A stretch of DNA of 59,156 nucleotides from positions 1 to 59,156 of the IMG/VR virus record IMGVR_UViG_3300042559_001610. One strand, 5' to 3'. This document shows, piece by piece, positions 40,095-59,156 of the stretch. This DNA is from a virus. Its lineage: Duplodnaviria > Caudoviricetes. Numbering within the stretch: the first letter of the stretch is position 1; every line of letters starts with the position of its first letter. Both the position numbers and the translations under genes were made by a program. The notes beneath the pieces are model-generated. The model saw only the letters and a list, made by a program, of their open reading frames with translations, did not search any database and had not been told where the DNA came from.

Positions 40095-40096
40095 AT

Positions 40097-41227: not shown

Positions 41228-41256
41228 AAAAAAGGAACCTTTTGAGGGGTTCCTTT
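41228..41256 (-). terminator. Attenuator terminator of tRNA operon 1
   Basis: AAAGGAACC-CCTCAAAA-GGTTCCTTT-TTT. Confidence 0.85.
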
Positions 41257-41281
41257 AAAATATCTGTATAAAAATTTCTTC

Positions 41282-41410
41282 TTATTCAAAAATCTTATGA
41301 AACCCATTTAGACGCTTAAAGCAAATCCAATAGACGATCACCTCAACTTCATGTACGAAGCTTGAGAACGATTTCTCTGATTTCTTTAATATGTTAATTA
41401 AGTTTCTCAT
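41282..41410 (-). CDS. Leader peptide (42 aa) of tRNA operon 1
   Basis: MRNLINILKKSEKSFSSFVHEVEVIVYWICFKRLNGFHKIFE*; GATATATA motif at 41425-41432; terminator just downstream. Confidence 0.8.
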   Translation of the reverse strand: MRNLINILKKSEKSFSSFVHEVEVIVYWICFKRLNGFHKIFE

Positions 41411-41578
41411 TTCTTTGATTGGTTTATATATCTTATTAGTTGTGTAAATATACGGTAGTTATACTGTTTTTTGGTAAAAAATTTCAAATATTTTCAATTA
41501 TTTTCAAACTTTTTTGATTTTTTTATTTGTTTTATTGAATATACGGTGATTATACACAAGATTTAGAAAAAGTTTCAA

Positions 41579-44500
41579 TTATTTTCTTATCTCCCCTAGC
41601 TTTTGAATTACATCTCCAAAGACTCTAGCCGTTTCGGATCTGTCTACAAATCTGTTATAATCTTTGGGCTTTACGTGAATAGCATAACGATCTGATGCAA
41701 ACACGGAGTTTCCATCAATTCCGGAACTATAATTATCAGGGATTCCAAAATCTTTTGGCCTTTTAAAAGTGTATGCTTGCCCATATGGTATAATGTCCCC
41801 TTTATAGAATAGGAAATCAAAAAGATCCGAAGACATGGCTGGATATTCTTTCCCAGTTATTTCTGTTCCAAATCCAACTCCATTAGGTCCATGTCCAAAT
41901 CCAAAATCTTCTCCAAAGGACCATTTTGTCTTGTGACCTATGTCATGTAGGGTGTCCTGAAGATCTCTAAGTTCTTCTTCTGAGTAGTCTTCAAATACTT
42001 TGATGTGCTTCATTTTTTTAGTTCGTTATAAAATTTCAGAAGAGATTCTGTGTAAGTTTCTTCGTGAGGACCATTTTTAAAAAATTGGTTTGCATAGTTT
42101 GTATTTCCGTCAAAACCATCCCCAGTGATGAGTAGTTCTGGTGATCCCCAGCCTGCGTATGTCGGAATTGTTAAATCAATTTTAACTCCGTTGCTCAGGA
42201 TCAAATGAAGATCTGCAAGAAAGTGAGATCCCATCTCACCATCTACGGAAAGAAGGGCAACGTCACTCTTGTAATTTCTGGCAAATTCTTCTTCTCTATC
42301 TCGTTCCTTTTTATACATTGCATCAGAACGAACATTAAATTTTAAATCGTGATGCCCTATTCCTCTAAGGTCTCCAATTAGATCCCCGAGTTCTTCTTCT
42401 GAGTAGTCTTCAAAAAGTTTAATGTGCTTCATGATTTAAGTTCTGATAAGTATTTTTCAATTTTTAGATATCTTGATTTAGCATTACTCGCATAAAATGC
42501 TATTCTAAATAGGTTTGTTCCAAATAAAGTTATAGCAGCTTTAATTTTTGGATCGGTAAATTGATAATAATTTGCATCTGGATTTGGTTTGGCTATTATC
42601 CCTTTATCCTCTAACTTTTTAATTCCTAATTTAGTGAGATATAAGGGATATCCCTGGCTAGCACCATCATGAAGAGCCGTTCCATATCCAAAATCCCTGC
42701 CCTTTTGAAGGAGTTTGTACTCATGACCAATCCCCTCTAGATCAACTTGGAGTGCCCTAAGTTCTTCGTCTGAGTAGTCTTCAAAAAGTCTAACGTGTTT
42801 CATTTTCTAATAGAAGATAGATAGTCAAAAACCTCCTGAGCAAAATCTTTCTTTATTTTTAGTCTTTCTTCAGTAGAAAGTCTGACGTGGGGTTTTACTT
42901 CAAGAGAATAGTCTCCTTCTGAGGGATCAAAAATACCCTGTTGAAAATAACGATAGACTGAATAGCTTGGGTATTTCAAAGAAAGTCCTACAGAGTCATC
43001 AAAATAAATAGCTCCTGGGGTGTGTGAGTCTCTTTTCATGAGGCCCTTTTTAAGCATATCCTCCACAACTGATTTTTTTATCACCAGATCTTCATATCCT
43101 GTATTTGGTCTTTTCATAAACCACTTCCTTTGCTGCTGTATGTCCTTTCCAAATCCAAAGTCTTCTCCAGGAATAAGCCTGTATGTGTGTCCAATGGTTT
43201 CTAAGTCCCCTAAAAGGCCCTCTATTTCTTCGTCTGAGTAGTCTTCAAATAGTTTGATGTGTTTCATCATATTAGTTTATCATATAGTGAGAGAGCGGAT
43301 AAAATCCATCCTCCTGGATATTCAAACATTTCATCTCCTACGGTTTCTTTGATTTCTTTTCCTCCAGTAAAGATGGTGATGTGTCCTAGATATCTATTAA
43401 AGGAATTATTTCCAGTATTTTTGAATTCAAATTCAAATTTGTCTCCGTTGGATAAATCCAGATTTAGCTGGATATCTTCTGGGTCGTTTTTATTGATTAT
43501 GTGTCCTTCAACTCTAACAACATGAACACCAGGATTTTCTTCAGAAACCCAATTTTCGCATTCATCTTTTTCAACTTTAGGATTTCCCCATGATTTGGAC
43601 AAATCAACATTAAAAATTAGATTGCTGTGACCAACACCTTTAAGATCTCCCATGAGATCTCTAAGCTCTTCTTCTGAGTAGGACTCTTTAAGACCTAGCT
43701 TTGACTTTATTCTTTGCAGAAAGGTTGGGTTTTTACTTCTGGATTTGTTAGCCAAATGACGTTCGTATCTCGTCAGAGCAGCCAAGGTGTGTGGATATTC
43801 CACGATTCCCATGTTATAGTTTTCGTTGTCATATGGGGAGTCGTCTTCATCATCTTCTAAATTGAGTATGGGATTTCCATTGACAGAAAAAGAGACCCCT
43901 TCGTAATTGTCTGTCACTGTTTCGATGACATCACCATTGGAAAGGTTTAGGGCAACAAGAACCTTATTGTCCGGGAGAATTTTGAGAGACCCAGATTTAA
44001 CTTTAATTTCCCCTCCTGGGGTTGGAAAAGACCAGGAATTAACGATGTCCCTCTCTTCTTGTTTATCCTTCTCCTTCATCCCAAATAAATGACCATAGTC
44101 TATATCCATACGAACTTCAGACTGCCCAACAGATCTCAGATCTCCAATGAGGTCCCTAAGTTCTTCATCCGTGTACTCCTCAAATAGTTTAATGTGCTTC
44201 ATCTTCTAAAAATGCTTCTCCTTTAGATTTGATTCCGTCGTAGAGATCAAGACAAGCTCTAACTACACTTCCAGATTCTAATAGCTCCAAATATTTTTCT
44301 TTAACCTCATAGTATCTGTCGTTGAGAGTAAAAGTCCCCTCGTCCTTATTGTCAGATCCTTTGTTTCCAGGCCCAGATTGGTAATAAAAGTAGAGATTAG
44401 CACGGTCACCGTTGGAAAAAACAAAGTCTAGATCAGTAGTTTCCTCGCTGATCTCTCCAGAAACTGATTTCAAGTAGGTACCTGGGCTAGATTTGGATTT

Positions 44501-45374
44501 CCAAAACTCTGCTTGCTTTGCCTCTTCTTCTGCCAATTCTGGATAGTCTATGTGATCTATATCCACCTCGACAACATTATGTCCAATCCCATAAAGGTCC
44601 TTCATCAGAGAATCTAAATCTTCTTCTGAGTACTCCTCAAAAATTCGGATGTGCTTCATTTCATTTAATCTAATATATCAATCGGGCTTCCCTGAAGAGA
44701 TCCATATCCCTTCATTTTTTTTGCTATTTCAACTAGAAAACCCCCTACTTCCTTTTTTCCCTTGAACTTTTTAATTTCCTCTGGACTCATTCCCAGTATT
44801 TTCCCGAGCTTTCCAATAACCGGGTAGAGCATGGCTGGGTTTAACCTGTGAACTTTATTTCCATATCTAGTCCCTATCTTTAGCGGAGATTCTGCAAGTC
44901 CTACTGAGGATAGATCATCTATTAGATCCCCTATCTCTTCTTCTGTGTAGTCTTCGAATAGTTTAATGTGCTTCATTACCTCTTGTTTTTATTGTAGTAG
45001 TCAGACATTTTGAGGTAGAGCTTGTAGAGTGGCTCCTGTTCTATTTTAGAGGTCGACCATCTTTCGTACGTTCCCATTCTCATGGGGCCACTCAGATTGT
45101 ATCTAGCGTGGTCTTCCACTGAGTTTTCATAAAGGTACCAGATCATGTCGTAGTAGTCTCCCTTCGTGTCTATATCAAAGTCTTCTGGGTTGGTGTAGTA
45201 GTCGTATAGGTACTCCGCATAGTCCTCAGCAGACATTCCCCCACCAAATTGGTTTATGAACTTTAGCATGTCCTCTTCTTCTTCAGTCAGAGCATGCCCA
45301 ACCGATCTTAGGTCCCCGATCAGGTCCTTTAGTTCCTCGTCTGAATAGTCTTCAAATAGTTTAATGTGTTTCAT
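41579..45374 (-). CDS. Tandem array of eight MKHIKLFEDYSEEEL..L..DL..IGH proteins (putative capsid-targeted internal proteins)
   Basis: 41579-42013, 42010-42432, 42429-42803, 42800-43270, 43267-44202, 44189-44659, 44665-44976 and 44976-45374 share a ~27 aa N-terminus; the bodies are mostly unrelated. Confidence 0.85.
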
Positions 45375-45385
45375 TTAATAATCTT

Positions 45386-45520
45386 TTATTTAGGCATTTC
45401 TCTCACACAATTCGGAACTACTCTGCCATTCTTCTTTTTGGTTCCAATTTGCTTATATCCCTTCCAGCATGGATTTTTTTCCTCCAGCACAAATTCGTTA
45501 TATTCTCTAAGAAATTTCAT
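45386..45520 (-). CDS. 44-aa PCWKGY-motif phage protein (below the track cutoff)
   Basis: MKFLREYNEFVLEEKNPCWKGYKQIGTKKKNGRVVPNCVREMPK, downstream of GATATATA at 45525-45532. Confidence 0.7.
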   Translation of the reverse strand: MKFLREYNEFVLEEKNPCWKGYKQIGTKKKNGRVVPNCVREMPK

Positions 45521-45544
45521 AATCTATATATCCTTTTATTCCAC

Positions 45545-46045
45545 TTACTTGGCGGAATAAATTTCAACTACAGATCCATCAGATCGAAAAATTCTAACGT
45601 CTGGTGATGTCCAACCATATTCGTCTGCCAAATACTGTGCATAAGACTCTGGAGTTGCAAAGACCACATCCCAATTTCTGTCCTTCCATCCTCCTTTAGA
45701 CGCTGCTACCGATGCTCCGTACTTCTCAGCAACCGAAGCTGCTTCTTTCTCAGTCATTGAACCGTAAGAACGAGGAAAGGACACCTCATGACCGCTGTAC
45801 CATCGGTCTCCGCAGCAAGGACAATCCATTCCCTCGTCTACTCCATTGAAGTAAACACCCATAGACTCGGCTTTAAGTTCTGCTTCTGCTTCGGAAGCAG
45901 CTTCTATTAGAAGTCTATGACAAACTTGAGAATTTGTAACGAAACTTCCACCTGTGTTGTTCTGGCTGAACTCGTAAAATTTTTGTAGTTTAGATTCTTT
46001 GACTGTTGATTTTATTTCTTTCATATTGTTTAAATTCACGTTCAT
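45545..46045 (-). CDS. Conserved phage hypothetical protein
   Basis: QNNTGG...YFNGV...DCPCCGDRW. Confidence 0.7.
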   Translation of the reverse strand: MNVNLNNMKEIKSTVKESKLQKFYEFSQNNTGGSFVTNSQVCHRLLIEAASEAEAELKAESMGVYFNGVDEGMDCPCCGDRWYSGHEVSFPRSYGSMTEKEAASVAEKYGASVAASKGGWKDRNWDVVFATPESYAQYLADEYGWTSPDVRIFRSDGSVVEIYSAK

Positions 46046-46214
46046 AAAAACCGGACCAGTTTCTGAAACGTCTTCCAGTCTTTGTCCGGGGTGTCAATAT
46101 AGGTTATGCCTTGGGCTATTCCCTTGTTTGACTTGAAAACACCTCAGGAGTGAGCAGATCTAACGGTATGCTTCGAGGCAATTTGTTCCTTTGAACTATT
46201 AGAAAAACCAGGTG

Positions 46215-46288
46215 TGTCGAGAACAGGAGTTGAACCTGTGACCTTGAGGTTATGACTCTCACGCTACTACCAACTGAGCTACCTCGAC
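46215..46288 (-). tRNA. tRNA-Met(CAT)
   Basis: Loop GTCATAA. Confidence 0.75.
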
Positions 46289-46350
46289 ATGGAGCCGGCA
46301 CCAGGATTCACTGGTGGATCGCCCGGCATTTATTTCCCAATTAGGGGTCG

Positions 46351-46423
46351 AGCGAGAAACCAGGTACGATCTGGCAACCTCCGACTTGGAAGGACGGCGC
46401 TCTACCAATTGAGCTACTCTCGC
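46351..46423 (-). tRNA. tRNA-Gly(TCC)
   Basis: Loop CTTCCAA, U73, atypical T loop ATCGTAC. Confidence 0.8.
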
Positions 46424-46537
46424 ATGGCGGACAAGCGAGTAATTTAATACTTCCTCTCATCCATAGTCACATCTTAGATTTAACTCCGCTTGTGCTAAGC
46501 TCGGACTGTATACCGGCATTTGTTCTGTTAAGAACCG

Positions 46538-46612
46538 TGGAGCAAGTGATAGGAATCGAACCTACGTCTCAGGCTTGGAAGGCTAGAGTAATAACCACTA
46601 TACGACACTTGC
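46538..46612 (-). tRNA. tRNA-Gly(TCC), second copy
   Basis: Loop CTTCCAA, TCCA end. Confidence 0.85.
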
Positions 46613-46624
46613 TTGTAAAAAATA

Positions 46625-46764
46625 CAGGATTGGGGTTTTTTTCCTGCTCTAACCAACTGAGCTACTCTGAACGATGCCACTTAAGGCTGTGTTCAAAGGA
46701 AGGACTCGAACCTCCGACCCGGGCATTATAAGTGCATTTTTTTAATTTTTGCTGTAACAATCCT
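46625..46764 (-). ncRNA. Y-RNA-like RNA 1 (stem-ACAGCAA scaffold plus permuted tRNA, TAT loop)
   Basis: AGGATTG/CAATCCT closing stem; T arm precedes D arm. Confidence 0.8.
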
Positions 46765-46775
46765 TTAATAAGTTT

Positions 46776-46904
46776 CAGGTTTCAGGTTTTTTGACCAGTG
46801 CGTCTACCAATTTCGCCATCGGGGATTTCTCCCTCTGTGGGGCTCGAACCCACACATCCTTTCGGATATCGGTTTTGATTATTTTTTCTTGCTGTAAGAA
46901 ACCT
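46776..46904 (-). ncRNA. Y-RNA-like RNA 2 (permuted Leu-like tRNA)
   Basis: AGGTTTC/GAAACCT stem, ACAGCAA, variable arm, T arm, GAAA-closed acceptor, Leu-type D arm. Confidence 0.75.
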
Positions 46905-46955
46905 TTTATTATCTTAGATCAGTAAGTGAAAATAGTTTCATTTACTGATCTTTTG

Positions 46956-47031
46956 TCTCCGCGGAGGGCTTCGAACCCCCAGTAATGTCCTCGTCCCAAA
47001 CGAGGCGACTTCCCAATTAGTCTACACGGAG
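46956..47031 (-). tRNA. tRNA-Pro(TGG)
   Basis: CCTCG TTTGGGA CGAGG. Confidence 0.85.
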
Positions 47032-47120
47032 AAATTATGGGTGGGATCAGAGGCCTTCTGCCCACCGGGACCTTCATTTTGAGATTGCTCTCAGGGAACG
47101 AAGACACTTTTTTAAAAATG

Positions 47121-47246
47121 CGGGATCGCATGTTTTTGGCCTGCTGCTCTACCAACTGAGCTACCGGGGATGCCGAAGCATTGTCCCCAGGTGAGACTCG
47201 AACTCACGACCCGCGGGTTGGATTTTTTCGTTGCTGTAACGATCCC
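47121..47246 (-). ncRNA. Y-RNA-like RNA 3 (permuted tRNA)
   Basis: GGGATCG/CGATCCC stem, ACAGCAA, T arm, acceptor closed by a TTCG hairpin, then D arm. Confidence 0.8.
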
Positions 47247-47256
47247 AATAAATTTA

Positions 47257-47314
47257 CAGGATGCTTGTTTTTTCAATTTAAAAGTTTGATTTTTTGATTT
47301 GCTGTATGCATCCT
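47257..47314 (-). ncRNA. Y-RNA-like RNA 4 (scaffold plus Lys-type anticodon stem-loop)
   Basis: AGGATGC..ACAGCAA..TCAAA CTTTTAA ATTGA..GCATCCT. Confidence 0.7.
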
Positions 47315-47324
47315 TTAATAAGTT

Positions 47325-47386
47325 CAGGTTAGTTTTTGATTTTACATCCAATTGTATAATTTTTTTAATTTTGCTGGAACTAACCT
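47325..47386 (-). ncRNA. Y-RNA-like RNA 5 (minimal)
   Basis: AGGTTAG..CCAGCAA..TACA ATTGGA TGTA..CTAACCT. Confidence 0.65.
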
Positions 47387-47393
47387 TTTTTTG

Positions 47394-47467
47394 CAGTTCG
47401 TACGGGATTCGAACCCGTGATCTCCACGATTGACAGTCGGGTATCTTAACCGCTAGACCAACGAACT
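47394..47467 (-). tRNA. tRNA-Asp(GTC)
   Basis: Loop CTGTCAA, G73. Confidence 0.85.
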
Positions 47468-47630
47468 ATGTTTAAAAAAGAAAATAATGAGGGAGTACCC
47501 GTCTCGCTCCAATCTTAATTGCTTCTTCAGTTTTAATGAGGCCTCGGCAAAGGGTGGTGCACTTCTTAAATTCCGTTCCTGGTTTGTCGACAACCGAAAA
47601 ACAGAGAAGGCCATTATTTTCTTTTATCTT

Positions 47631-48539
47631 TTATTGTTTCCAAGATTTTCTTTTGAAACAATTAATTTCATAAAATTCTGGGAGAAATCTTTTCATCCAT
47701 CCATTTATTTTTTGATCTGATAATCCAACTATTTTAGAAGCTTGAGATACCCATCCAAAGGAAGAAAAATCTATGCCTGATGAAATTAATTCTTCTGCAA
47801 TTCTTTGATTCTTTTCGTTGTATTGTATTGCATTTAAAGCTCTCTTATCTACTTTTGGGGTTTTTAATTCTTTGGATCTTATTAATCTTTCTTCTAATTT
47901 TTTAGTTTCGGAATTTGAAAGGAAGGAAATTAAGTCCTCGATTTTAAAGCTCTCTGTCTCGTCATAAGCTATTCTATAAACTCTCCATCCTGATTTTTCT
48001 AAATTATGATCCCTGGTTATGTCATGATCTATTCTTTTTTTATTTATAAAATGACATTTTCCATCAAATTCAACTGCTACTTTTTCATTAATAAAAGCAA
48101 AATCAATAAAATATGGATAAACTGGATGTTGAAAGATAACATCATACTTTGAATAAATCTTATTCTCTTCAAATATATTGTGTAACCATTCCTCTCCGTA
48201 GGTCATTAACCCGTTTGCTACTTTACCCCAAGCCGTTTTTTGGAAATTGTTTTTATCCGAAAGATATTCGAATCTTTTTTTCCTCATTTTTTCCTTAGTT
48301 TCTTCTGAATATACTTTAGTATGACTGAGTGTTTTTAAACATTTTTTATCTCCACAAGTGGAATTAAATTTTATACCTCTTCTTAATTTTCTATTTTTTT
48401 CACAATATGGGCACTTAGGAATTTTCATATTTTCATATTTTTGATAATATTCAAGAAGACTGATTCCATATTTTTTTAAACTTGTCGATAGACCTAATTT
48501 ATTTTTACAAATTGTTCCATCTATTTTAGATATAATCAT
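47631..48539 (-). CDS. Putative homing endonuclease (DUF559/Vsr-like)
   Basis: YFIDFA....VAVEFDG..H......D..RD..LEKSGWRVYRI. Confidence 0.8.
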   Translation of the reverse strand: MIISKIDGTICKNKLGLSTSLKKYGISLLEYYQKYENMKIPKCPYCEKNRKLRRGIKFNSTCGDKKCLKTLSHTKVYSEETKEKMRKKRFEYLSDKNNFQKTAWGKVANGLMTYGEEWLHNIFEENKIYSKYDVIFQHPVYPYFIDFAFINEKVAVEFDGKCHFINKKRIDHDITRDHNLEKSGWRVYRIAYDETESFKIEDLISFLSNSETKKLEERLIRSKELKTPKVDKRALNAIQYNEKNQRIAEELISSGIDFSSFGWVSQASKIVGLSDQKINGWMKRFLPEFYEINCFKRKSWKQ

Positions 48540-48596
48540 AATCTATATATCCAAATTAAGTTCGAATAATTTGTCGTTTTGCCATTTTTTAAGTTG

Positions 48597-48679
48597 TTAT
48601 CCCGTCAGGAGTCGAACCTGAATACAGCTTTCGCTTCCAGAGCCAAAATCTGGGGTGTTGCCAGTTACACTACAGGATA
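48597..48679 (-). tRNA. tRNA-Gln(TTG), long variable arm
   Basis: CCAGA TTTTGGC TCTGG, U1-A72. Confidence 0.8.
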
Positions 48680-48691
48680 ATTTATTTGGGG

Positions 48692-48765
48692 TGGGCCATA
48701 CAGGGCTCGAACCTGTGACCTTGACATTATGAGTGTCCCGCTCTGACCAACTGAGCTAAAGGCCC
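48692..48765 (-). tRNA. tRNA-Ile2/Met(CAT), probably Ile2 reading ATA
   Basis: GGGCC acceptor typical of Ile2, loop CTCATAA. Confidence 0.8.
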
Positions 48766-48810
48766 GATTTTTCTAATATGTCAAATAACTCTTTGTGAAG
48801 TAACATACGG

Positions 48811-48899
48811 TGGCAGAAGATACAGGACTCGAACCTGTACACCGAATTAACGGTGAGCTAGTTAGCAACCAGTTGCAGTACCATTATGCTTAATCTTCT
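48811..48899 (-). tRNA. tRNA-Ser(GCT)
   Basis: Loop TTGCTAA, long arm, GCCA. Confidence 0.85.
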
Positions 48900-48904
48900 A
48901 ATTG

Positions 48905-48980
48905 TGGAGCTAGTGGGAATCAAACCCACCACAGTCTGATTGCAAATCAGACTCGCCGAAGTCTTGGTACATGTAACCCC
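48905..48980 (-). tRNA. tRNA-Ala(TGC)
   Basis: G3:U70, loop TTTGCAA. Confidence 0.85.
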
Positions 48981-48989
48981 ATTTTTATT

Positions 48990-49077
48990 TGGCGGAGAGG
49001 ACAGGATTCGAACCTGCGGTACCTTTCGGTACACATGCTTTCCAAGCATGCTCCTTAAACCACTCGGACACCTCTCC
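48990..49077 (-). tRNA. tRNA-Ser(GGA)
   Basis: Canonical; loop TTGGAAA, GCCA. Confidence 0.95.
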
Positions 49078-49082
49078 AGGTG

Positions 49083-49166
49083 AGCCAGATGTAGGATTCG
49101 AACCTACGGTGTACTTTCGTATCCGGTTTACAAAACCGGCGCTATCGACCTCTAAGCGAATCTGGC
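49083..49166 (-). tRNA. tRNA-Thr(TGT), long variable arm
   Basis: CCGGT TTTGTAA ACCGG. Confidence 0.85.
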
Positions 49167-49239
49167 GTTTTTGACAAGCTTATAACTGGTCCTGTCCAGT
49201 ACTTGTCGTGTATGCCACTTTCCAGGATGAGATCAAAAA

Positions 49240-49413
49240 TTACTTACAGTCTGCACTGTCAGAACAAACTGATGTGCTGTCTGGGCAAACACAAGCAGTG
49301 TCTTTGTTACAAGTGCTGTCGCATTTACTAGCGCAATTGCTAGATTGATTTGATCCGTTAGAGCAAGAGCCCAATGCTAATGCTAAAGTTAAAGCTAAGA
49401 TTAAGTTTTTCAT
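49240..49413 (-). CDS. 57-aa Cys-rich lipoprotein (below the track cutoff)
   Basis: MKNLILALTLALALGSCSNGSNQSSNCASKCDSTCNKDTACVCPDSTSVCSDSADCK; lipobox LGSC. Confidence 0.7.
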   Translation of the reverse strand: MKNLILALTLALALGSCSNGSNQSSNCASKCDSTCNKDTACVCPDSTSVCSDSADCK

Positions 49414-49434
49414 TTTTATTTTTAAGTTGTTTTG

Positions 49435-49506
49435 CTGGGATGGAGAATTTCGAAATCTCGACCTACGGATTAACAGTCCGCCGCTCTGCCTCTGAGCTAC
49501 ATCCCA
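49435..49506 (-). tRNA. tRNA-Asn(GTT)
   Basis: GCGGA CTGTTAA TCCGT. Confidence 0.9.
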
Positions 49507-49516
49507 ATGTAATTTG

Positions 49517-49608
49517 CTGACTAAAAGGGATTCGAACCCTAAACTCCCGCCCTATTGTCTTCCGTTAAGAATATCGTCGGGCAGTGTGCTCCAATACACC
49601 ATAGCCAA
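49517..49608 (-). ncRNA. tRNA-like RNA with expanded anticodon domain
   Basis: D arm GTGT..ACAC, T arm TAGGG TTCGAAT CCCTT. Confidence 0.55.
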
Positions 49609-49657
49609 TCGAGAGTTTCGAACCTCTCAGTTTTAGGTTAATTACTCCTAAAATTTG

Positions 49658-49731
49658 TTGCGGCTCTCAGGATTCGAACCTGGTGTCTCTGGGTTATGAG
49701 CCCAGTATGTAAGCCATTTCACTCAGCCGCA
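49658..49731 (-). tRNA. Initiator tRNA-fMet(CAT)
   Basis: CTGGG CTCATAA CCCAG (three G-C pairs). Confidence 0.85.
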
Positions 49732-52897: not shown

Positions 52898-53384
52898 TTA
52901 ATTGAAAGACTTTGCTCTCTCAATTGCATCTTCGAGGGAAATCCACTTGATGTATTCGGGATTGGTATCCGCTTCTACTCCAAAGAGCATCTTTCCCTCA
53001 TCTGACTTTGCCACTGCCAGTGTCCCCAGACCTTCACAAATTTGACCCATTGCTTCGTTAGGTTTCAAGTCATTGAATAACTCCGCATAGTCGAAATCGC
53101 TGTGATCAAAACCAAATGCATCCTGATATTGTTTACTAAATTCTGCCATCTTAAAATTCCTTTATCTTTTCAAATTCTTCCTTGCTGATAAAAACTTCTC
53201 CCGAGCAATAGGAACCACCCGTTAGGATGGCCCATGCTTTGGAGATTCTTCTACCCAAGGTGTCCCCTGAATAGCTTTTATAAACAGTTACTATAGTTTC
53301 CTCCAACTCGTCGTTAAACTTGTCGAAAGCTATAATAGAGCATCCATCGGAGCATCTAACCAGTAATTCTTTTCTTTCTTCCAT
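52898..53384 (-). CDS. Two hypothetical proteins (52898-53149; 53151-53384)
   Basis: ORF track. Confidence 0.6.
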
Positions 53385-54826
53385 TATGCTTTGATAGCTT
53401 CGTATCTAGGTGAAAGAATAGTTTCGTCCATTATTGCAGATGGGCTTGTTATTTCCCCTCTAACAACAGACTTTAGAATCGATGGGCTAAATCCGGAGAT
53501 TAAAGCTGTTCCAGTCTTGTCGAAAGCTACTGGAACGTTGTCCCCTCTGGATTGGATGTTCCAGTAAACTATCTGAGGCATTTTATAACCTGCAGAAGAG
53601 TACTTTTGCTCGATCATTTGTTGAGCAGTTGGATTCCAAGAACTTCCTTCAGATCTTCCGTAGTAACCCCCTCTAGATCCGTTTGCTGCATCGAATTCCA
53701 TATCTGATAGGATCAAAACCTTAGTTGGCATTTCAGACTCAGGAACTGAGTTCTTCTTTGCTTGGTCTAGGATTAGATCAAACACCCTTTCGACGTTGGT
53801 GTTCATTCCCCATTCAGCTCTTGCAAGTTGAGCAAATCTGTCTCTCAAGTTACCTTTTAGGTATTGAAGAGTTGGGTTAGCAGAGAAGGTAACGAATGCA
53901 TCCTTGAATGCACCTTCGTTTCTTTCAGAGATGTAAAGACCTAGTGATAGGGAAACATCCATACAAGTAACGTTTTTGTTTCCTCCTGCTGGGCAACCCA
54001 TAGATCCAGAAACGTCTACCACTGGTAGGATTCTTTCTGTAGAACCTTCCATGTAGTTTGGAAGAGCTTTCCATTGCTCGATTGCTACATCTGCGTTTCC
54101 TCTTTGTAGTGACTTAGTCACGTCGTAAGGGTAAACTGCAGAAGCATTAATCTTAGCTTCTCCTTTTTGAAGAGATGCAATGTAGGCTTTGTATCCCGCC
54201 TCGTTTCTTTTCCAGAAAGCCTTTTGGTATCTAGCAGAAGCAACTGATGGCAATTTACCAAAGTCGATGCTCTCCCACTCGTTTGAACACATTTGGGTTT
54301 CTACCACCTTAGTTAATTCAACTAAAGTCTTTCTATATTGTTTTGGTGACATTTCTAAGAACTGTCTTAATCTGTTAGCAACTGGACCTTTTCTAGGCAT
54401 CCATTTTGCTGCAAGACCATTCTTGTTCTCTAAAGCCCAACGAATTTGAGTTAAAGCTTCTGTCTCTAACTTAGTTCCAACCAGAGTTAAAAGATCGTCC
54501 CATCTTCCATATTCGGAAACATAAGGAATGTTTTCCTTTAGGAATTGAGGGTGGTTTTCTGCAAGGTAAACCATGATGTCCTTGAAGATCTGACGTTCTC
54601 CAGCTCCACCTCTAATGTCTCTTACCCAAAAGAGAATTTTCATTGCTCTATTTGGATCATTTAACAAAGCAAGCGAGAACTTAGAGATCAAACGCTCTTT
54701 GTTTTGACCTCTCATAGCTCCGATTGTGAAGAATAAATCCACACAAGCGTTTAGAGAAGATGAGTTAGTTGTCATCCCGTTTTCTGTAACGGTGTTGTTT
54801 TGTCTTAATGCGTCTACAAGTTTCAT
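53384..54826 (-). CDS. DUF2828-type TROVE/Ro60-like protein with vWA domain
   Basis: TENG, RDIRGGAGER, YGRWDDL, AKWMPR, VDVSGSM (MIDAS), LSDMEFD, IVYWN, SGFSP. Confidence 0.85.
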   Translation of the reverse strand: MKLVDALRQNNTVTENGMTTNSSSLNACVDLFFTIGAMRGQNKERLISKFSLALLNDPNRAMKILFWVRDIRGGAGERQIFKDIMVYLAENHPQFLKENIPYVSEYGRWDDLLTLVGTKLETEALTQIRWALENKNGLAAKWMPRKGPVANRLRQFLEMSPKQYRKTLVELTKVVETQMCSNEWESIDFGKLPSVASARYQKAFWKRNEAGYKAYIASLQKGEAKINASAVYPYDVTKSLQRGNADVAIEQWKALPNYMEGSTERILPVVDVSGSMGCPAGGNKNVTCMDVSLSLGLYISERNEGAFKDAFVTFSANPTLQYLKGNLRDRFAQLARAEWGMNTNVERVFDLILDQAKKNSVPESEMPTKVLILSDMEFDAANGSRGGYYGRSEGSSWNPTAQQMIEQKYSSAGYKMPQIVYWNIQSRGDNVPVAFDKTGTALISGFSPSILKSVVRGEITSPSAIMDETILSPRYEAIKA

Positions 54827-55275
54827 AAATTTTTCCTTTTAATTGTCTCTATTTTATATTGGTTATACAGTTTTGTTTCGTCTCCGTCACATTTTTCTAC
54901 GATTTCTTCCCAGATATCAAGATCAAATGTTTTTATTAGTCCTTCTTTTAGAAGAGATAATCGATTTGTTTCATATCGAAGATGCTCTTCTTTTAATTTT
55001 TCAATTCTTTTATGGTAAACCTTCCATCGGTTGTTTGCAAAGTCCCTAACTGAAGCCTCGGAAATTCTAGGATTCTTGACTTTGTATTCCTTGATTTCTT
55101 TTTCCCAGTAGACCAGCTCTTTGTCTGCCATTTTCCAGTAAGGGCTCTCTTTGAAGTCCCCGTTTAGAATTTGATACCAAACTAGAGGTTCTAATGCCCC
55201 CTTGGGTTTCTTCTTCAAAGGGGGATTTACGCTTACCCCTCTTTTCCACCACGTATACGGATTAAATTTTGCCAT
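54823..55275 (-). CDS. Hypothetical protein
   Basis: ORF track. Confidence 0.65.
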   Translation of the reverse strand: MAKFNPYTWWKRGVSVNPPLKKKPKGALEPLVWYQILNGDFKESPYWKMADKELVYWEKEIKEYKVKNPRISEASVRDFANNRWKVYHKRIEKLKEEHLRYETNRLSLLKEGLIKTFDLDIWEEIVEKCDGDETKLYNQYKIETIKRKNL

Positions 55276-55401
55276 TTGCTTTATCTCTGGAGATTGCTTC
55301 CATTAATGAAATATACGATTGCCTTACCGGTCCAGGTGAGAAACTTAGTGAAAAAATTCCAAAAAGTTTCTGCTGTTTTATTTTCTTTACTATTCTACTT
55401 C

Positions 55402-56094
55402 TCATAAGAATTCTATCTCGTTAGTTTCCGGATCCCATTCTATCGTTAAAGGGGGATTGGTAAAATTATACCCCTCGTTTAGAACACAAGCATTGATGTA
55501 GTGGGTATTCCCATCAAACTTATATCCATAACTTCCGTGAATATGACCGAAGACGTGGATCTTTGGTTTTATCTTCTCTATTCTTTTCAGAAGAAGCTCA
55601 CACCCAAGATCCCGGGTTCCATATCCAGAAACGTCCAAGTGTCCCCACGGTGGTCCGTGGGTAACAAGGATGTCTGTATTGTCAGGAATCCAAGACCACT
55701 TCTCTTCTAAGTCTGGACCGTTTCTAGGAAGATTGAAACCCCAGTTATAAAACTCAGGTTGCCAAGGACTTCCCCAGATGTTCACAGTCTTGTCAGTGTC
55801 CATGTCATAGATTCCAAAACTACTATCCTGAAGGTAAATCAGATCGTTGTAGAAATCTAGAATCTCTTTGGTCATTTCCGGGTAGTCTTCAAATCCCATA
55901 TCGTGGTTACCAGCAATAAAAACTTTGAAGTTATAACCCTTTAATTCTTTATACCACTTGCAGAACTGTTGAATCTCATGCTTATATCCCATCGAAGTCA
56001 AATCTCCAGCATGGAGAATTAAATCCCCTCCAGGAAGAGAAGATGTGATCTGATTATGTTTGAGGTGAGTGTCGGAAATAAACGTGATTTTCAT
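55402..56094 (-). CDS. Metallophosphoesterase (calcineurin-like)
   Basis: ISDTH, HAGD, AGNHD, THGPP, FGHIH. Confidence 0.92.
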   Translation of the reverse strand: MKITFISDTHLKHNQITSSLPGGDLILHAGDLTSMGYKHEIQQFCKWYKELKGYNFKVFIAGNHDMGFEDYPEMTKEILDFYNDLIYLQDSSFGIYDMDTDKTVNIWGSPWQPEFYNWGFNLPRNGPDLEEKWSWIPDNTDILVTHGPPWGHLDVSGYGTRDLGCELLLKRIEKIKPKIHVFGHIHGSYGYKFDGNTHYINACVLNEGYNFTNPPLTIEWDPETNEIEFL

Positions 56095-56102
56095 TCTAAC
56101 AC

Positions 56103-57203
56103 TTATACTTCCTCCTCAGATTTAGTTTCAAACGGTCTTGAATATACAGGTTTTATCATTTGCCAGATTTTAGAATTTGGATCTCTCCCATCTGCAATCA
56201 GAAATAAAATTCCAGTGCTAATTCTCGAGTCTTTCACCGACAAAAATGCTTCAGCAATTTGCTTTCTGCTCATCTCTTCTGACTTTAAGATGGAATTTAC
56301 TTGAGCAACGTGAAGGGACTTTATAAAGGAAAATTTACTTCTAAGATCAATTTCAACTTTTCTTATCCAATCGTAAAATTCGTCTGGAACGTTATTCAAG
56401 AAAGTTTCTGGTAATTCCCCATTAGTTTTTAAAAAATCCCAAACATCATAAGTTGAAACCTGAGTTACAATTCTGTGGAGTCTCACATATTCTTCAAACT
56501 TAATTTTACATCTTAACCCAGAAGGAAAAAATCTAAGAACAAATCCCTCCTTATTTGATTCATTTCTGTCTTTTAATTTTAGAAATAAGTCTTCCTTATC
56601 TCTTTCCATTAAAGTTGGAACTATGTCCTCTTCTAAAATTCCGTTTGATTTGAACACAGATTTTGCAGTCCCCCAATTCAATTCTCCGGCTGGGGTAGAA
56701 GCAGTTATAAAAACAAAGGTCTCCAAATCCCCATAATCTACAACTATTCTATTTTCTTTAAAAATGATTTCTCCAATATAAGCAACCTCTGACATGAATT
56801 TATCTAAATTGTATTTAGATTTTATAATTTCAAACCCTCTGACGGCTTGATCTGAAGTAAAAGACCCTCTAGATGAGAATACCCATTTCCCTTTGTAGTT
56901 AAATAATATCCCCAGAGAACCGTCCATTTTTTCTTGAACGTAGATGTACTCTGAAGAATTGATTAGGTTCTCATTTTCGTCTATCCTTTCCTCGTAGTTG
57001 AAGAATTTAGGAATTGGTCTAACTAGGATTTCTCCAGTTGACGAGTCAACTATTAGACCCCGGCAAGCCAAAGTCACGTCGTCCCATTGACCATCGTATT
57101 GAGTCTTCTGAGTGTAGTTATAAATAGTCAGCGGAAGAGTTGGATGCACTTGAGACATCAACCAACCTTCAGCCACATAAGCGTCTAAAATTTCTTTGTT
57201 CAT
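56103..57203 (-). CDS. T4 Rnl1-family RNA ligase
   Basis: CRGLI, KFFNY, EKMDGS, EGFV, KIKFEEY. Confidence 0.9.
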   Translation of the reverse strand: MNKEILDAYVAEGWLMSQVHPTLPLTIYNYTQKTQYDGQWDDVTLACRGLIVDSSTGEILVRPIPKFFNYEERIDENENLINSSEYIYVQEKMDGSLGILFNYKGKWVFSSRGSFTSDQAVRGFEIIKSKYNLDKFMSEVAYIGEIIFKENRIVVDYGDLETFVFITASTPAGELNWGTAKSVFKSNGILEEDIVPTLMERDKEDLFLKLKDRNESNKEGFVLRFFPSGLRCKIKFEEYVRLHRIVTQVSTYDVWDFLKTNGELPETFLNNVPDEFYDWIRKVEIDLRSKFSFIKSLHVAQVNSILKSEEMSRKQIAEAFLSVKDSRISTGILFLIADGRDPNSKIWQMIKPVYSRPFETKSEEEV

Positions 57204-57348
57204 TATGATTTCTTTTTTCGAGAATAGATTTTACCAGAAGGTTTAACCTTGGTAATCATGTTTCTTCTGATTTGCTGAGCAAATGATCTGGTTTCTTTAT
57301 CTTGTCGTGAGTTTTGTGAGTCTTTCATATTAGAATATACGGTCAGAT

Positions 57349-58152
57349 CTAAATTGGAAGTTTAACTCTCGAAAGCATTTGATTCGAAACGTGGGTGTAA
57401 ATTTCAGTAGTCTTAGAAGATGAATGTCCTGCGATCTTTTGAATTATTCTAAGATCTGTTCCAGATTCAAGAAGGTTGGTAAAAGAGGAATGTCTAAGAG
57501 TATGGATGGATGATTTGTCATCTATATATTTCTTATAGATTTTTTGACAGCTTCCTATTGAATACTTCAGAGAATTTTGTCCATTAAAAAGATACACTTT
57601 AGGTTTAAAATTTCTCCAGTATTCTCTAAGAAGTTCCAAGACTATCTGAGAAAGTGGAACAATCCTATCTTTTCTACCTTTGGCATTTTTAATGTGAATT
57701 ATCATCCTTTTTGAATCGATATCCTCTATTTTAAGATTGATAATTTCGGACACGCGGAGTCCTACTGAGTAAGTTAATGTTAAAATTGTCTTGTGTTTTG
57801 GATTTTCAATTAAATTTAATTTAGATAAAATAAATTCCGAATCAATTACTTTAGGTAGTTTCTTTTCTGACCTTGGTCTTTTGAAAGAAACTTTATCGTA
57901 CTTTTTATTTAAAATCTCCTTATATAAAAATCGGATAGCATTAATTACTTGGTTCTGCTGCGAGATAGAGGTGAATTTATAGTTATCTAAGTAAGATTGA
58001 AAATCAGAAGAATTGCAATGTATAATCTGTTTATTATTTAAACTTTCTAAAAAAGGTTTGATATGAGATAAATAATTATCTCTTGTTCTAGGAGAATAGT
58101 TTAAGTATATAAATTTTTCTTCACAAATCTTTATAATTTTTTGATTTTTCAT
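57349..58152 (-). CDS. Tyrosine recombinase (integron-integrase-like, no obvious IntI insertion)
   Basis: YS.RT..NY N-terminal domain, GLRVSE, KGRKDR, HTLRHS, AGH....TEIYTHV. Confidence 0.92.
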   Translation of the reverse strand: MKNQKIIKICEEKFIYLNYSPRTRDNYLSHIKPFLESLNNKQIIHCNSSDFQSYLDNYKFTSISQQNQVINAIRFLYKEILNKKYDKVSFKRPRSEKKLPKVIDSEFILSKLNLIENPKHKTILTLTYSVGLRVSEIINLKIEDIDSKRMIIHIKNAKGRKDRIVPLSQIVLELLREYWRNFKPKVYLFNGQNSLKYSIGSCQKIYKKYIDDKSSIHTLRHSSFTNLLESGTDLRIIQKIAGHSSSKTTEIYTHVSNQMLSRVKLPI

Positions 58153-58226
58153 GCTGTAATCTGTTGATGATTAATGATTTATACTTTATTACATATATAA
58201 TATAGTTATAAGTAATAAAACAAAAA

Positions 58227-58409
58227 TTACGAGTATAATATTTTGCCACTCTGTTTCAACATGGGTAAAACACAAAACCTAAATTCGTGTTTATCAAATT
58301 CATCTTTTAGTTCTTTTTTAATAATCAAGTAATCAATTGATGTACCAATCAAAGGTTTTGTGTTTTCTAATGAATTAATCTCCAACACTTTTTTATTTTC
58401 TATTTTCAT
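58227..58409 (-). CDS. Cassette 1 hypothetical protein (start MKIENKK)
   Basis: Lies between the attI-like core and attC1. Confidence 0.55.
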   Translation of the reverse strand: MKIENKKVLEINSLENTKPLIGTSIDYLIIKKELKDEFDKHEFRFCVLPMLKQSGKILYS

Positions 58410-58492
58410 ATTGTATAATTTTTGTTTTACATACTTATAACAACAAATAAAACACATTAAAACGATGTTTTATTTGCAATCGTTAGTATCAA

Positions 58493-58786
58493 TTATTTTT
58501 TGCTACGTTCTGCACAAAATTTACAATTCCCCTTGTGAGTTAAAACATCGCTATTAAATGCGTTTATATGTCCAATGTATTCGCAACTATCAATAACGTA
58601 TAATCTCACATTTCTTATACCATTTCCATCAACAGATTCAATTTTATCAATAATTGGATAAATTTTGTCAATAGGTGTTAGCTCTTGTTTTGGTGTTTCG
58701 TTTCCACAACCGAAAAAAATAACAGCTACTAACAGCACATAAGCAAAAGCAAAGGTGTGATGGTAAATTGATGTTTTCGTTTTCAT
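58493..58786 (-). CDS. Cassette 2 lipoprotein
   Basis: FFGC lipobox, IDSCEYI..LTHKGNCKFC; starts inside attC2. Confidence 0.7.
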   Translation of the reverse strand: MKTKTSIYHHTFAFAYVLLVAVIFFGCGNETPKQELTPIDKIYPIIDKIESVDGNGIRNVRLYVIDSCEYIGHINAFNSDVLTHKGNCKFCAERSKK

Positions 58787-58862
58787 ATTATATTCTGTTT
58801 TTAAATTAAATTTTTCGTTTCTAAATCTTTGCCTTCGCTTATCTGCAAACCGTTAGTTGTAA

Positions 58863-59030
58863 TTATAATATATTTCTATCTTTAGCCCATTTTCTATCTA
58901 TTTCACGTTGTTTTAGTGCATCATCACCTAATTTATCAATATAACTACAACTAACATCAGATATATTCAATTGTTTTTCATATTCTTGAACTATCTGCTT
59001 TGCTTTTAAGTATTCTTCTTCTGTTATCAT
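58863..59030 (-). CDS. Cassette 3 protein (55 aa, below the track cutoff)
   Basis: MITEEEYLKAKQIVQEYEKQLNISDVSCS...; starts inside attC3. Confidence 0.6.
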   Translation of the reverse strand: MITEEEYLKAKQIVQEYEKQLNISDVSCSYIDKLGDDALKQREIDRKWAKDRNIL

Positions 59031-59156
59031 TTGTATTTTAATTTAAGTAAACAACTGAATATATCTGCAACAGTTAGGTTCAATATTCAATTTTTTCCTT
59101 TCTCATACTTAAATATACGGTCTCTTCTTCAGATCTCCAAACTTTTTTTAAGAAAA

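Follow-up and report, generated by a model that had tools for sequence, protein, structure and literature searches.

At the end of the record IMGVR_UViG_3300042559_001610 lies a module (57349-59121) that consists of a gene for a tyrosine recombinase, a 52-nt attI-like spacer and an array of three cassettes of one gene each, every cassette being bordered by a palindrome of the form TAAC...hairpin...GTTA (Table 1). The window, by which we mean the whole 59 156-nt stretch of DNA that was analysed, has the appearance of a fragment of a large lytic-type phage with 24 tRNA genes, and the contig stops 35 nt past the module. The source of this large phage is lake water. All three cassette ORFs are directed at the integrase on the strand of its own gene, as an initial annotation made from the sequence had proposed, and two of them begin within a hairpin, those of cassettes 2 and 3, whose starts fall in hairpin loops.

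Table 1. Features of the cassette module, with positions in the window
Feature	Position	Strand	Remarks
Second copy of ACCGTATATT	57334-57343	minus	6 nt past the recombinase stop codon; proximal edge of the module
Tyrosine recombinase gene, 267 aa	57349-58152	minus	simple Xer/IntI type; catalytic motifs conserved in the family
attI-like site (52-nt spacer from the recombinase start codon to the first TAAC core)	58153-58208	minus	conserved spacing; homology breaks
Cassette 1	58206-58482	minus	ORF 58227-58409, 60 aa; hairpin element 58438-58485; ends 58205-58226 / 58420-58441 (22 nt, 77% complementary, exact core 14 nt)
Cassette 2	58483-58852	minus	ORF 58493-58786, 97 aa; 126-nt hairpin element 58730-58855; ends 58482-58501 / 58714-58733 (20 nt, 85% complementary)
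Cassette 3	58853-59073	minus	ORF 58863-59030, 55 aa; 125-nt hairpin element 58952-59076; ends 58852-58867 / 58940-58955 (16 nt, 94% complementary)
Distal array end: lone cassette-end half-site ATTGAACCTAAC, with an 8-codon ORF before it	59074-59111	minus	12-nt end also in related locus L017
ACCGTATATT motif, upstream of the array	59112-59121	minus	putative promoter of the array and of the recombinase gene

The repeats of this region exceed what composition would produce. Within 58153-59110 (958 nt), exact inverted repeats of 10 nt or longer, spaced within 400 nt, form 10 pairs, against 1.35 +/- 1.22 (maximum 6) in 500 dinucleotide shuffles of the same stretch, none of which reached 10; the inverted repeats are therefore beyond chance. 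This is also the richest 1-kb bin of the window, with 10 of its 61 pairs, the next bins holding 6 and 5, and palindromes of the type TAAC..stem..GTTA occur exactly three times in all 59156 bases, each time in the array region as the hairpin element of a cassette. The three pairs of complementary cassette ends quoted in the initial annotation (for cassette 1, 58205-58214 and 58432-58441) are present with matches of 10/10, 7/7 and 10/10, and their complementarity runs further than had been noticed; the R''/R'-type signature read from them is found again at related loci. The imperfect hairpins reported to follow the cassette ends are likewise real, at 58431-58454 / 58466-58489 and, for the stem of cassette 3, at 58958-58976 / 59049-59067 (19 nt, 95%). 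The element of cassette 1 belongs to a class of 48 nt, with a stem at 58444-58454 / 58466-58476 and the minus-strand loop TCGTTTTAATG.

In cassettes 2 and 3 the hairpins extend into the coding sequences. In cassette 3 the start codon and the first ~25 codons occupy the loop and the 3' arm, and leaders of this type (..NLNISDVS) are found elsewhere fused to unrelated C-termini. The predicted protein of cassette 2 has a lipoprotein-like N-terminus, in which a putative signal peptide (charged start, hydrophobic run, ..FFGC) would span the GTTAG core. For cassette 1 the listed longer form of the ORF starts at 58457, and the start at 58409, outside the hairpin, is the more likely one. None of the three proteins belongs to a family in Pfam or NCBIfam, and that of the first cassette has no match in PHROG. 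The Rfam search returned nothing real, its one chance match (E=0.17) lying within the recombinase gene, and the DNA search of the region against isolated phages gave a single match of 68 nt, to a hairpin element of an uncultured phage of 462 kb. The elements themselves recur at related loci: a counterpart of the cassette 1 element, with 98% identity, stands between different neighbours in L009 and L029, and the cassette 3 element has a match of 90.6% identity in L005 and matches of ~70% identity in 9 further loci.

The recombinase is recognized by the Pfam models Phage_integrase (2.3e-31) and Phage_int_SAM_4 (7.1e-12), and all of its NCBIfam scores are below the cut-offs (given in brackets): XerA_Arch 172 (220), integrase_gron 159 (265), XerC 138 (335) and XerD 137 (330). 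The best-scoring model is thus that of archaeal XerA, and none of the Xer equivalog cut-offs is reached. The same is true of the integron-integrase models, TIGR02249 giving 159 bits in two stretches against a required 265 and NF011946 giving 106 against 435, so that the IntI HMM check that had been called for leaves the enzyme under the cut-off. Both by sequence and by fold, the nearest solved relatives are IntI4 (2a3v) and XerA (4a8e, 5hxy), which are the top Foldseek matches. Aligned with IntI4, residues 18-177 correspond to 17-179 and residues 210-266 to 260-316, with 178-209 opposite IntI4 180-259, and the AlphaFold model (pLDDT 83) has short elements only between helices 169-182 and 199-209. 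The enzyme was said to lack an obvious IntI-specific insertion, and this description holds, ~48 IntI residues being missing. In Vibrio IntI4, according to the account of MacDonald 2006 given in PMC8138268, the insertion contacts flipped-out bases of the folded site; its absence from the phage recombinase is a point against folded-strand recognition by that enzyme.

In public annotation the recombinase is named XerD. It is strongly conserved, with 120 clusters of 82-100% identity among the matches listed and invariant catalytic residues, and its close relatives number 3 in 185,579 species genomes versus 67 in viral contigs. A scan of the species genomes yielded 6 loci, the three close relatives being those of a Fermentimonas MAG, of Sunxiuqinia indica and of a Chitinophagaceae MAG. 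A member of the Bacteroidota is the host that we infer, and only infer because species genomes hold just these 3 close relatives.

Sixty-two non-identical related loci, the window included, were compared. The recombinase gene adjoins an array in every case, through the same spacer, and the arrays stand on its 5' side, reaching up to 12 or more elements within a 5-kb flank; in the 25 non-redundant loci where the gene has 5 kb of flank on either side, 131 elements are upstream and 3 downstream. The unique TAAC/GTTA hairpin elements number 252. Read on the recombinase-sense strand, a site comprises four cassette-specific bases, TAAC, an unpaired 5-nt spacer, a stem-loop of 11 to ~25 bp, an unpaired 2-nt spacer, GTTA and again four cassette-specific bases. 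The asymmetry of the spacers (5 versus 2 nt, the 5' one being longer) is found in at least 240 of the 252 elements. In the 48-nt class (49 elements) the 11-bp stem is 99.1% paired, with compensatory changes at 9 of its 11 pairs and a covariation score of 0.334 versus 0.114 in shuffles, 0.334 being reached by none of 500; in an 88-nt class, also of 49 elements, 16 of 24 predicted pairs display such changes. Folding with RNA parameters favours the recombinase-sense strand in 233 of the 252 elements, and with DNA parameters it is the more stable strand in 230 and the less stable in 17. This better-folding strand is the one present in the mRNA as well, and a function of the hairpins as RNA could thus account for both the covariation and the G.T pairs. 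A short sequence motif, CTAAC-N1-3-TTGCA, was tried as the general pattern; it occurs 3 times in the window, yet has only 16 matches in 664 kb of loci, and a structural scan was preferred.

Past GTTA/TAAC, the two ends of one cassette are complementary over a contiguous run of 4.54 bases on average, with a mode of 6 and a run of at least 4 in 78% of the cases (n=193). Mean runs in the controls are 0.98 for the two sides of one hairpin (4% of at least 4, n=261), 0.98 for skip-one pairs (7%, n=163) and 0.96 for other pairs of ends (4%, n=792). This pairing of a cassette's own ends beyond GTTA is the footprint that crossover at G|TT leaves on integron cassettes.

The docking site beside the recombinase gene has what characterizes an attI, namely a conserved spacer, homology breaks at the core and, in the cultured Freya phages, insertions at the equivalent junction. 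The distance from TAAC to ATG in 28 family members is 52 nt in 22 and 51 nt in 5, and one member has CAAC. In the window the core is GTTA at 58205-58208 on the plus strand, and crossover would probably take place at G58205|T58206. Two pairs of loci, L031/L033 and L048/L050 (recombinase genes 99% and 92% identical, respectively), agree fully in attI, and their homology ends at the (T)AAC core. When assembled contigs from other lake metagenomes, which are blind to circles and rare junctions, were compared with the window, they parted from it at 58205 (run X20), 58730 (X19 and X20) and 58856 (X20); in run X20, cassette 1 comes after the hairpin of another cassette and not after attI. Three other joints were considered and rejected: 58224>58421 and 58216>58943 as deletions, their short sides (24 and 28 nt) lying in inverted or similar repeats, and 58750>58830 as an excision, the ~33 other letters between its sides marking a related hairpin with a shorter loop.

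Cultured relatives provide a second view of the same junctions. The carriers in culture are the Polaribacter phages Freya and Danklef and the Cellulophaga phage Ingeline, the recombinase of Freya being 35% identical to that of the window. Freya_10 equals Freya_1 plus a block of 4921 nt (12 small ORFs) placed after ..ACAAC beside the recombinase gene, and it differs from Freya_9 by one additional cassette of 307 nt at that junction. In Danklef_1 a block of 1169 nt held in common (99.6% identity) has AACGT cores at its borders, and other shared cassettes are present in a different order; this phage has kept its array, with the recombinase gene reduced to 132 nt. A second array downstream of a truncated gene occurs in L060. 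As judged from genome comparison, the direct evidence of cassette movement comes from this more distant Freya/Danklef family and from metagenome contigs of ~91% identity. A lack of exchange at the GTT cores had been named as grounds for abandoning the integron-like reading; the homology breaks and the Freya insertions fall at the core, which is what exchange there would be predicted to leave.

Cassette content varies to an extreme degree. The 197 cassettes at related loci have a median length of 359 nt, and in 191 of them the longer ORF is the sense one, on the strand of the recombinase gene; the hairpin precedes this ORF, and from its stop codon to the end of the cassette the median distance is 12 nt. 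From 59 non-identical loci, 186 cassette proteins fall into 170 clusters, and apparent five-member protein families have only the hairpin-encoded leader in common. No whole cassette is common to non-identical loci of the window's family at at least 80% identity over at least 80% of the length. The comparison of relatives proposed in the initial annotation has thus found nearly all cassettes unshared, and the invariant content that would have spoken against its reading is not seen. Part of the cargo consists of orphan DNA methylase genes, and these are plausibly counter-defence genes; the cargo as a whole has the character of a fast-changing store of small accessory genes, probably exchanged among phage relatives.

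The motif ACCGTATATT, which had been reported to flank the array, is present there and belongs to a phage-wide set. Its 12 exact copies in the window are confined to the minus strand, where they either precede an ATG by between a few bases and ~45 nt or follow immediately on a tRNA 3' end; with one mismatch allowed there are 18 matches against 2.9 expected, a number reached by none of 100 shuffles. At the module it marks both edges and is absent inside the cassettes, and the copy upstream of the array may be the promoter from which the array is transcribed. A direct repeat at 57325-57344 / 59103-59122 (20 nt, 85% identical) was considered as an attL/attR pair and rejected, being the promoter-like motif plus a start codon. 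At the proximal edge, a contig of run X20 has this recombinase gene, with 4 differences over 864 nt, and other DNA from 57346 on.

Taken together, these data are best read as a phage-borne gene-cassette platform that is integron-like in its working and different in its parts, to which we assign a probability of about 0.8, and they uphold the initial proposal of an integron-like system with a non-IntI recombinase. In the mechanism proposed, the recombinase would join folded hairpin sites between the small genes to the attI-like site that lies 52 nt before the start of the recombinase gene, crossover occurring inside the AAC core, which reads G|TT in the direction leading away from that gene. 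Each cassette would carry its hairpin first, followed by the 5' untranslated region of a single small ORF, the ORF itself and a terminal stretch able to pair with the start of that cassette, so that an excised circle would restore a complete hairpin site. The cassette gene would be transcribed toward the recombinase, with the hairpin at the 5' end, where it would often contain the start codon along with a short leader peptide. The adjacent recombinase is the presumed catalyst of cassette exchange, and folded single-stranded DNA its putative substrate. More speculatively, the recombination site could be part of the gene, the hairpin giving the 5' untranslated region, the start codon and the leader ..NLNISDVS, in which GTTAG encodes Asp-Val-Ser; such a shared leader could act as a common address tag of otherwise variable proteins, for example for virion packaging.

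Other explanations share some of this evidence. The hairpins might be regulatory punctuation (terminator or promoter, RNA processing) with homologous recombination shuffling the genes and the recombinase an uninvolved enzyme of lysogeny or dimer resolution, a role that its public annotation as XerD would suit. Hairpins between co-oriented small ORFs that fold best on the mRNA strand fit this account, as do hairpin families 80-98% identical between loci with differing neighbours, which could be substrates of homologous exchange, and the shuffling of PeSL-flanked ORFs known in T4-type phages from the texts of PMC2839356 and PMC4122927. It leaves unpredicted, however, that 4-6 bases outside GTTA match the cassette's own far end (78% versus 4-7% in controls), that arrays are one-sided with the last core 52 nt from ATG, and that the Freya insertions fall exactly after AAC at the recombinase junction; the promoter-like motif is found outside the array only, and the carrier resembles a large lytic-type phage. 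We consider this account improbable. Marginally less probable still is a true site-specific array worked in trans by host Xer or canonical IntI, the adjacent recombinase being a passenger or remnant. According to the text of PMC9892861, IntI1 can recombine attC sites of virulent phages, and the array of Danklef_1 persists beside a recombinase remnant, as does the second array of L060 downstream of a truncated gene; arrays without a recombinase (CALINs) exist in integrons too, however, and are no argument against an enzyme in cis. The conservation of the recombinase with its catalytic residues and its constant coupling to the array by the same spacer argue against a passenger, and the scarcity of close relatives in species genomes compared with viral contigs makes a host-encoded partner not evident.

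Inversion must be weighed as well, since small genes that each lie between inverted repeats of 10-22 nt near a tyrosine recombinase gene recall phase variation of the shufflon or inverton type. Shufflons have a similar outline, with inverted repeats and a tyrosine recombinase gene. Yet the polarity of the elements is uniform, as is the strand of the ORFs, no locus has a cassette in the opposite orientation, and the differences between related phages are insertions or deletions of entire units rather than inversions, which makes this the least probable of the accounts, by our estimate very unlikely. A MITE-like reading was rejected on the same grounds as these alternatives.

The gene-cassette platform, as we prefer to read it, has its closest parallel in classical integrons, above all in sedentary chromosomal ones with homogeneous attC sites. 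Common to both are the order of recombinase gene, adjoining docking site and array of one-gene cassettes, with the same polarity of the sites; imperfectly palindromic sites that have an AAC/GTT core, stems that vary in sequence under compensatory change and an asymmetric unpaired spacer; cassette ends that pair as expected for G|TT crossover; a recombinase-sense ('bottom') strand that folds better; cargo that is small, diverse and mostly of unknown function; and IntI4 as the nearest solved relative by fold. The differences are as clear. A promoter at the attI end of a classical integron drives its genes in the direction leading away from the integrase, with attC at their 3' end, whereas the phage cassette genes occupy the opposite strand and run toward the recombinase, the hairpin being 5' of the gene and often containing its start codon; the phage core is TAAC/GTTA followed by 4 variable bases, and the carriers are probably phages of Bacteroidota instead of bacterial chromosomes or plasmids. 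Because its enzyme has no IntI insertion and a sub-cut-off IntI score, and because its genes run toward the recombinase with a 5' hairpin, the phage system is not a member of the integron family.

Two further systems resemble it in part. Xer recombinases (XerA/XerC/XerD) are also short two-domain tyrosine recombinases, and Xer-dependent modules are known in the pdif modules of Acinetobacter plasmids; their sites are dif-like duplexes of 28 bp, compared with hairpin sites of 48-130 nt here, where the gene is phage-borne and linked to an array. PeSLs, for their part, consist of an early promoter joined to a stem-loop of terminator type, and they are not known to involve a dedicated recombinase. 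As described in the texts of PMC2839356 and PMC4122927, small ORFs in hypervariable regions of T4-type phages are split by conserved stem-loops, and close relatives differ by ORF units. These 'mobile regulatory cassettes' share with our array the small ORFs of unknown function separated by stem-loops and the differences by whole units, whereas the array has a dedicated recombinase always adjacent to it, a docking site and a cassette-specific end footprint, and no early promoter of the ACCGTATATT type in each unit.

Cassette-type sites in phages have been described. Qi et al. 2023 (PMC9892861) used IntegronFinder and HattCI together with IntI1 assays and found phage genomes with attC clusters and integron fragments, the text reporting canonical IntI genes or attC clusters 'lacking an integron-integrase'. 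Some of the cargo is orphan DNA methylases, and a Polaribacter phage is among the examples; the text, the supplementary tables being outside the comparison, does not present a phage-encoded non-IntI recombinase having its own docking site and arrays. The literature search found no description of a non-IntI phage cassette platform within its scope, to which supplementary files that may hold relevant tables did not belong.

Integrons are the textbook gene-capture device of bacteria; their definition rests on IntI with its extra domain, and this domain is held to be essential for reading folded attC. The locus analysed here would represent a viral version of this logic, with a docking site, one-gene cassettes bounded by hairpins and the G|TT footprint, served by an enzyme without the IntI domain and with its genes reversed. 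A broader proposition, which we regard as tentative and put at somewhat below even odds, is that short Xer-like recombinases of Bacteroidota phages perform integron-type recombination of folded hairpins without the IntI insertion, that this activity is older or more widely distributed than IntI or was invented twice, and that phages use it to trade accessory and counter-defence genes. The cultured carriers (Freya, Danklef and Ingeline) open the question to direct testing. If the recombinase is indeed the catalyst, integrons would have to be given a broader definition and a wider evolutionary history, the very rapid replacement of small ORFan genes in large phages would have a mechanism, the arrays of these phages would constitute a searchable bank of candidate counter-defence genes, and there would be a reason why many metagenomic 'XerD' genes occur in phage contigs.

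The initial annotation had proposed an integron-like phage system with a non-IntI recombinase, and a cassette footprint, a docking site and variable units in relatives support that proposal: the array in the window (Table) is an integron-like platform lying outside the integron family. The inverted repeats quoted in that annotation were all found, most being longer than stated. Inverted repeats are about seven-fold more frequent than in dinucleotide shuffles (10 vs 1.35 ± 1.22, with 0/500 shuffles reaching 10), and the flagged 1-kb bin is the richest in the window. A search of IMG/VR with the recombinase returned 67 loci (best-segment identity 53-89%, contigs of 4.6 to 465 kb) in which BLASTN shows the recurrence of the recombinase gene, ~60 nt upstream of it and the window hairpin elements 58430-58500 and 58940-59077. 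These elements are present one to several times 5′ of the recombinase gene, and the ORFs in between are without match. In L009, one of these loci, the units follow the order ORF, stop codon, TAAC core, stem-loop, GTTA core and next ORF, and the stems differ from one another by paired changes.

Table. Features of the recombinase and cassette stretch in window coordinates
Feature	Coordinates	Strand	Remark
ACCGTATATT motif copy	59112-59121	-	first item along the minus strand, then three small ORFs
Tyrosine recombinase gene, 267 aa	57349-58152	-	after the three small ORFs
Second ACCGTATATT motif copy	57334-57343	-	after the recombinase gene
Hairpin elements, exactly three in the entire window	58438-58485; 58730-58855; 58952-59076		structural scan

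The structural scan, which looked for TAAC and GTTA at a distance of 30-170 nt and for 10 or more paired bases beside these cores, identified 252 unique elements across the 67 loci, falling into size classes of ~48, 78-90 and 113-131 nt. Within 25 non-redundant loci having 5 kb on either side, 131 elements are upstream of the recombinase gene and 3 downstream. At least 240/252 elements have the longer of their unpaired spacers at the 5′ side, and element polarity is therefore uniform. Pairing reaches 99.1% in the 11-bp stem of the 48-nt class (49 sequences), where compensatory changes affect 9/11 pairs, the 11-nt loop is close to invariant, and the bases just outside the cores of one element pair in only 51% of cases; in the 88-nt class (49 sequences), compensatory changes affect 16/24 predicted pairs and several G·T positions are conserved. 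The predicted hairpin structure is under selection. Folding with RNA parameters makes the recombinase-sense strand the stabler one in 233/252 elements, and with DNA parameters it is stabler in 230 and less stable in 17. ‘Empty’ units without ORF, ~29 nt long, with a conserved loop TCGTTTTAATG between a GTTA-side box and a complementary TAAC-side box, adjoin the docking site just 5′ of the recombinase genes in three loci (L004 ~370-428, L005 ~4940-5000 and L033 ~300-355); the invariant loop may itself serve as a binding site. Another locus, L060, has a second run of about nine hairpin elements (6867-9876) downstream of a truncated recombinase gene, so that a remnant gene can have arrays on both sides, unless the locus arose by the joining of two arrays.

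The footprint was assessed by the complementarity of the bases outside the cores, comparing the GTTA side of an element with the TAAC side of the following one. The two ends of the same cassette show a mean contiguous complementary run of 4.54, with 78% reaching at least 4 (n = 193 pairs), vs a mean run of 0.96-0.98 and only 4-7% reaching 4 in control pairs (same-element sides, skip-one and all other). Terminator function, homologous recombination or transposon-type terminal repeats might be invoked as the source of this pairing, but none of them predicts it, because the paired bases vary from cassette to cassette. Such own-end pairing is the expected product of crossover inside the core and the hallmark of integron cassettes.

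The distance from the TAAC end to the recombinase ATG is exactly 52 nt in 22/28 family members and 51 nt in 5/28. This last TAAC, the docking site, has no hairpin after it; each cassette thus has its hairpin at the recombinase-distal end, which is also the integron arrangement. Loci L031 and L033 have 99% identical recombinase genes and identical spacers, with similarity ending exactly at AAC, and the same divergence at AAC is seen between L048 and L050 (genes 92% identical). The stretch is contained in 20 runs, and contigs of four other lake metagenomes were compared with the window; being assemblies, they show alternative contexts, not excision events. Loose contig ends are found at 58205, 58443, 58730 and 58856, i.e. 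at cores or a few bases off. In one such run (X20), cassette 1 (~91% identical) is preceded by an arm of an 88-nt-class hairpin, not by attI, and on another contig the recombinase gene has 4 differences in 864 nt with other DNA from 57346 on. On this second contig, from another freshwater metagenome, the nearly identical gene and its docking site sit in a different backbone, with breakpoints 3 nt past the stop codon (57346) and at the first core (58209); the recombinase/attI module, too, seems to be mobile among phages, perhaps exchanged via the repeated promoter-like motif.

At the protein level, the closest phage isolates are Cellulophaga phage Ingeline (38%) and Polaribacter phages Freya and Leef (35% each). 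Freya_1 and Freya_10 share a 100% identical distal flank and a 99.9% identical recombinase side, and Freya_10 has an extra 4921-nt block with 12 small ORFs. This insert ends in ..TTGCTAAC and is flanked by ..TTTACAAC and by the 57-nt spacer that precedes the recombinase ATG. Freya_9 lacks just the 307-nt unit closest to the recombinase gene. Danklef_1, phage of another Polaribacter strain, has a shared 1169-nt block (99.6% identity, both breakpoints in AACGT) and two more Freya_10 units in changed order; its recombinase gene is a 132-nt remnant (L079 6849-6980), the docking site is gone and the upstream array is kept, a phage equivalent of attC clusters that lack an integrase. The same junction motif occurs 5′ of the recombinase gene of Ingeline. 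For these phages, the describing paper gives genome sizes of 44.0-48.9 kb and reads the integrase as pointing to a possible temperate lifestyle (PMC8776804).

Cassettes with a detected element at both ends number 197 (median 359 nt). In 191 of them the longer ORF is the recombinase-sense one. The median ORF has 80 aa, and a median of 12 nt separates the stop codon from the end of the cassette. Their 186 proteins of at least 30 aa form 170 clusters, including 160 singletons. A Pfam scan of 150 proteins, made up of the three from the window and the 147 longest among 177 locus-encoded ones with 45 aa or more, matched 16 families with one or two members apiece, among them two N6/N4 DNA methylases, for which PHROGs agree, a GNAT acetyltransferase and an Arr-ms-like domain. 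Hairpins of the long class contain the start codon and a ~25-residue leader in their loop and 3′ arm, with GTTAG translated within Asp-Val-Ser. Different loci carry this leader fused to C-termini that are unrelated. The claim that ORFs start inside the hairpin holds for window ORFs 58863-59030 and 58493-58786, and a putative lipoprotein-like signal peptide of the latter would span the core.

The recombinase combines Phage_int_SAM_4 and Phage_integrase domains and scores under the cut-offs of the XerA, IntI, XerC and XerD models. It aligns with IntI4 in two stretches, skipping ~48 residues that include the IntI insertion; in the integron-like subgroup of tyrosine recombinases this insertion ‘is not fully conserved’ according to a survey (PMC8138268). 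For its AlphaFold model (pLDDT 83), the best Foldseek match is IntI4 and the next archaeal XerA. The family is abundant in metagenomes (at least 120 clusters, 82-100% identity, called XerD where named), and only three close relatives, all Bacteroidota, were found in 185,579 species genomes.

The carrier window, one entire contig of 59156 nt, has all its long ORFs on the minus strand, 24 tRNA genes and genes for thymidylate synthase, a Ro-like RNA-binding protein, HNH endonucleases, an RNA ligase and a metallophosphatase. The 10-nt ACCGTATATT occurs in 12 exact copies, on the minus strand only and mostly right 5′ of start codons. Owing to this gene content, the minus-strand ORFs and the repeated motif, the window reads as a fragment of a large phage genome, with the flagged stretch at the upstream end relative to gene direction. 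G+C is 25% in 58001-59000 and 28%-48% in the remaining 1-kb bins. The motif may serve as a phage promoter or as a processing signal. In at least two places (37127-49731) it directly adjoins or overlaps the 3′ end of a tRNA: a copy at 37127-37136 accompanies tRNA-Val, which ends at 37139, and a one-mismatch copy at 48802-48811 accompanies tRNA-Ser (48811-48899). Its ACC may thus be common to motif and tRNA end. A possible RNA-repair set, consisting of the Ro-like protein (phrog_850, 4.6e-155), a calcineurin-like phosphoesterase and a T4-type RNA ligase, is encoded at 53384-57203, immediately downstream of the recombinase module and next to the 24-tRNA-gene block. The contig begins within a very long minus-strand ORF (1-3889, at least 1296 aa) whose visible DNA end consists of short repeats in which CCTGAAGA-like units abound; the encoded repeat would be acidic and of Pro/Glu/Asp type.

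The platform resembles the classical integron in the positions of recombinase gene and docking site, site polarity and folding strand, but differs from it in enzyme, gene orientation and carrier. Catalysis by the recombinase and a single-strand mechanism are putative. Full-text literature searches yielded no description of this arrangement, a phage cassette platform with a non-IntI recombinase; the nearest published report found concerns phages with canonical integron parts and with attC clusters that lack an integrase (PMC9892861).
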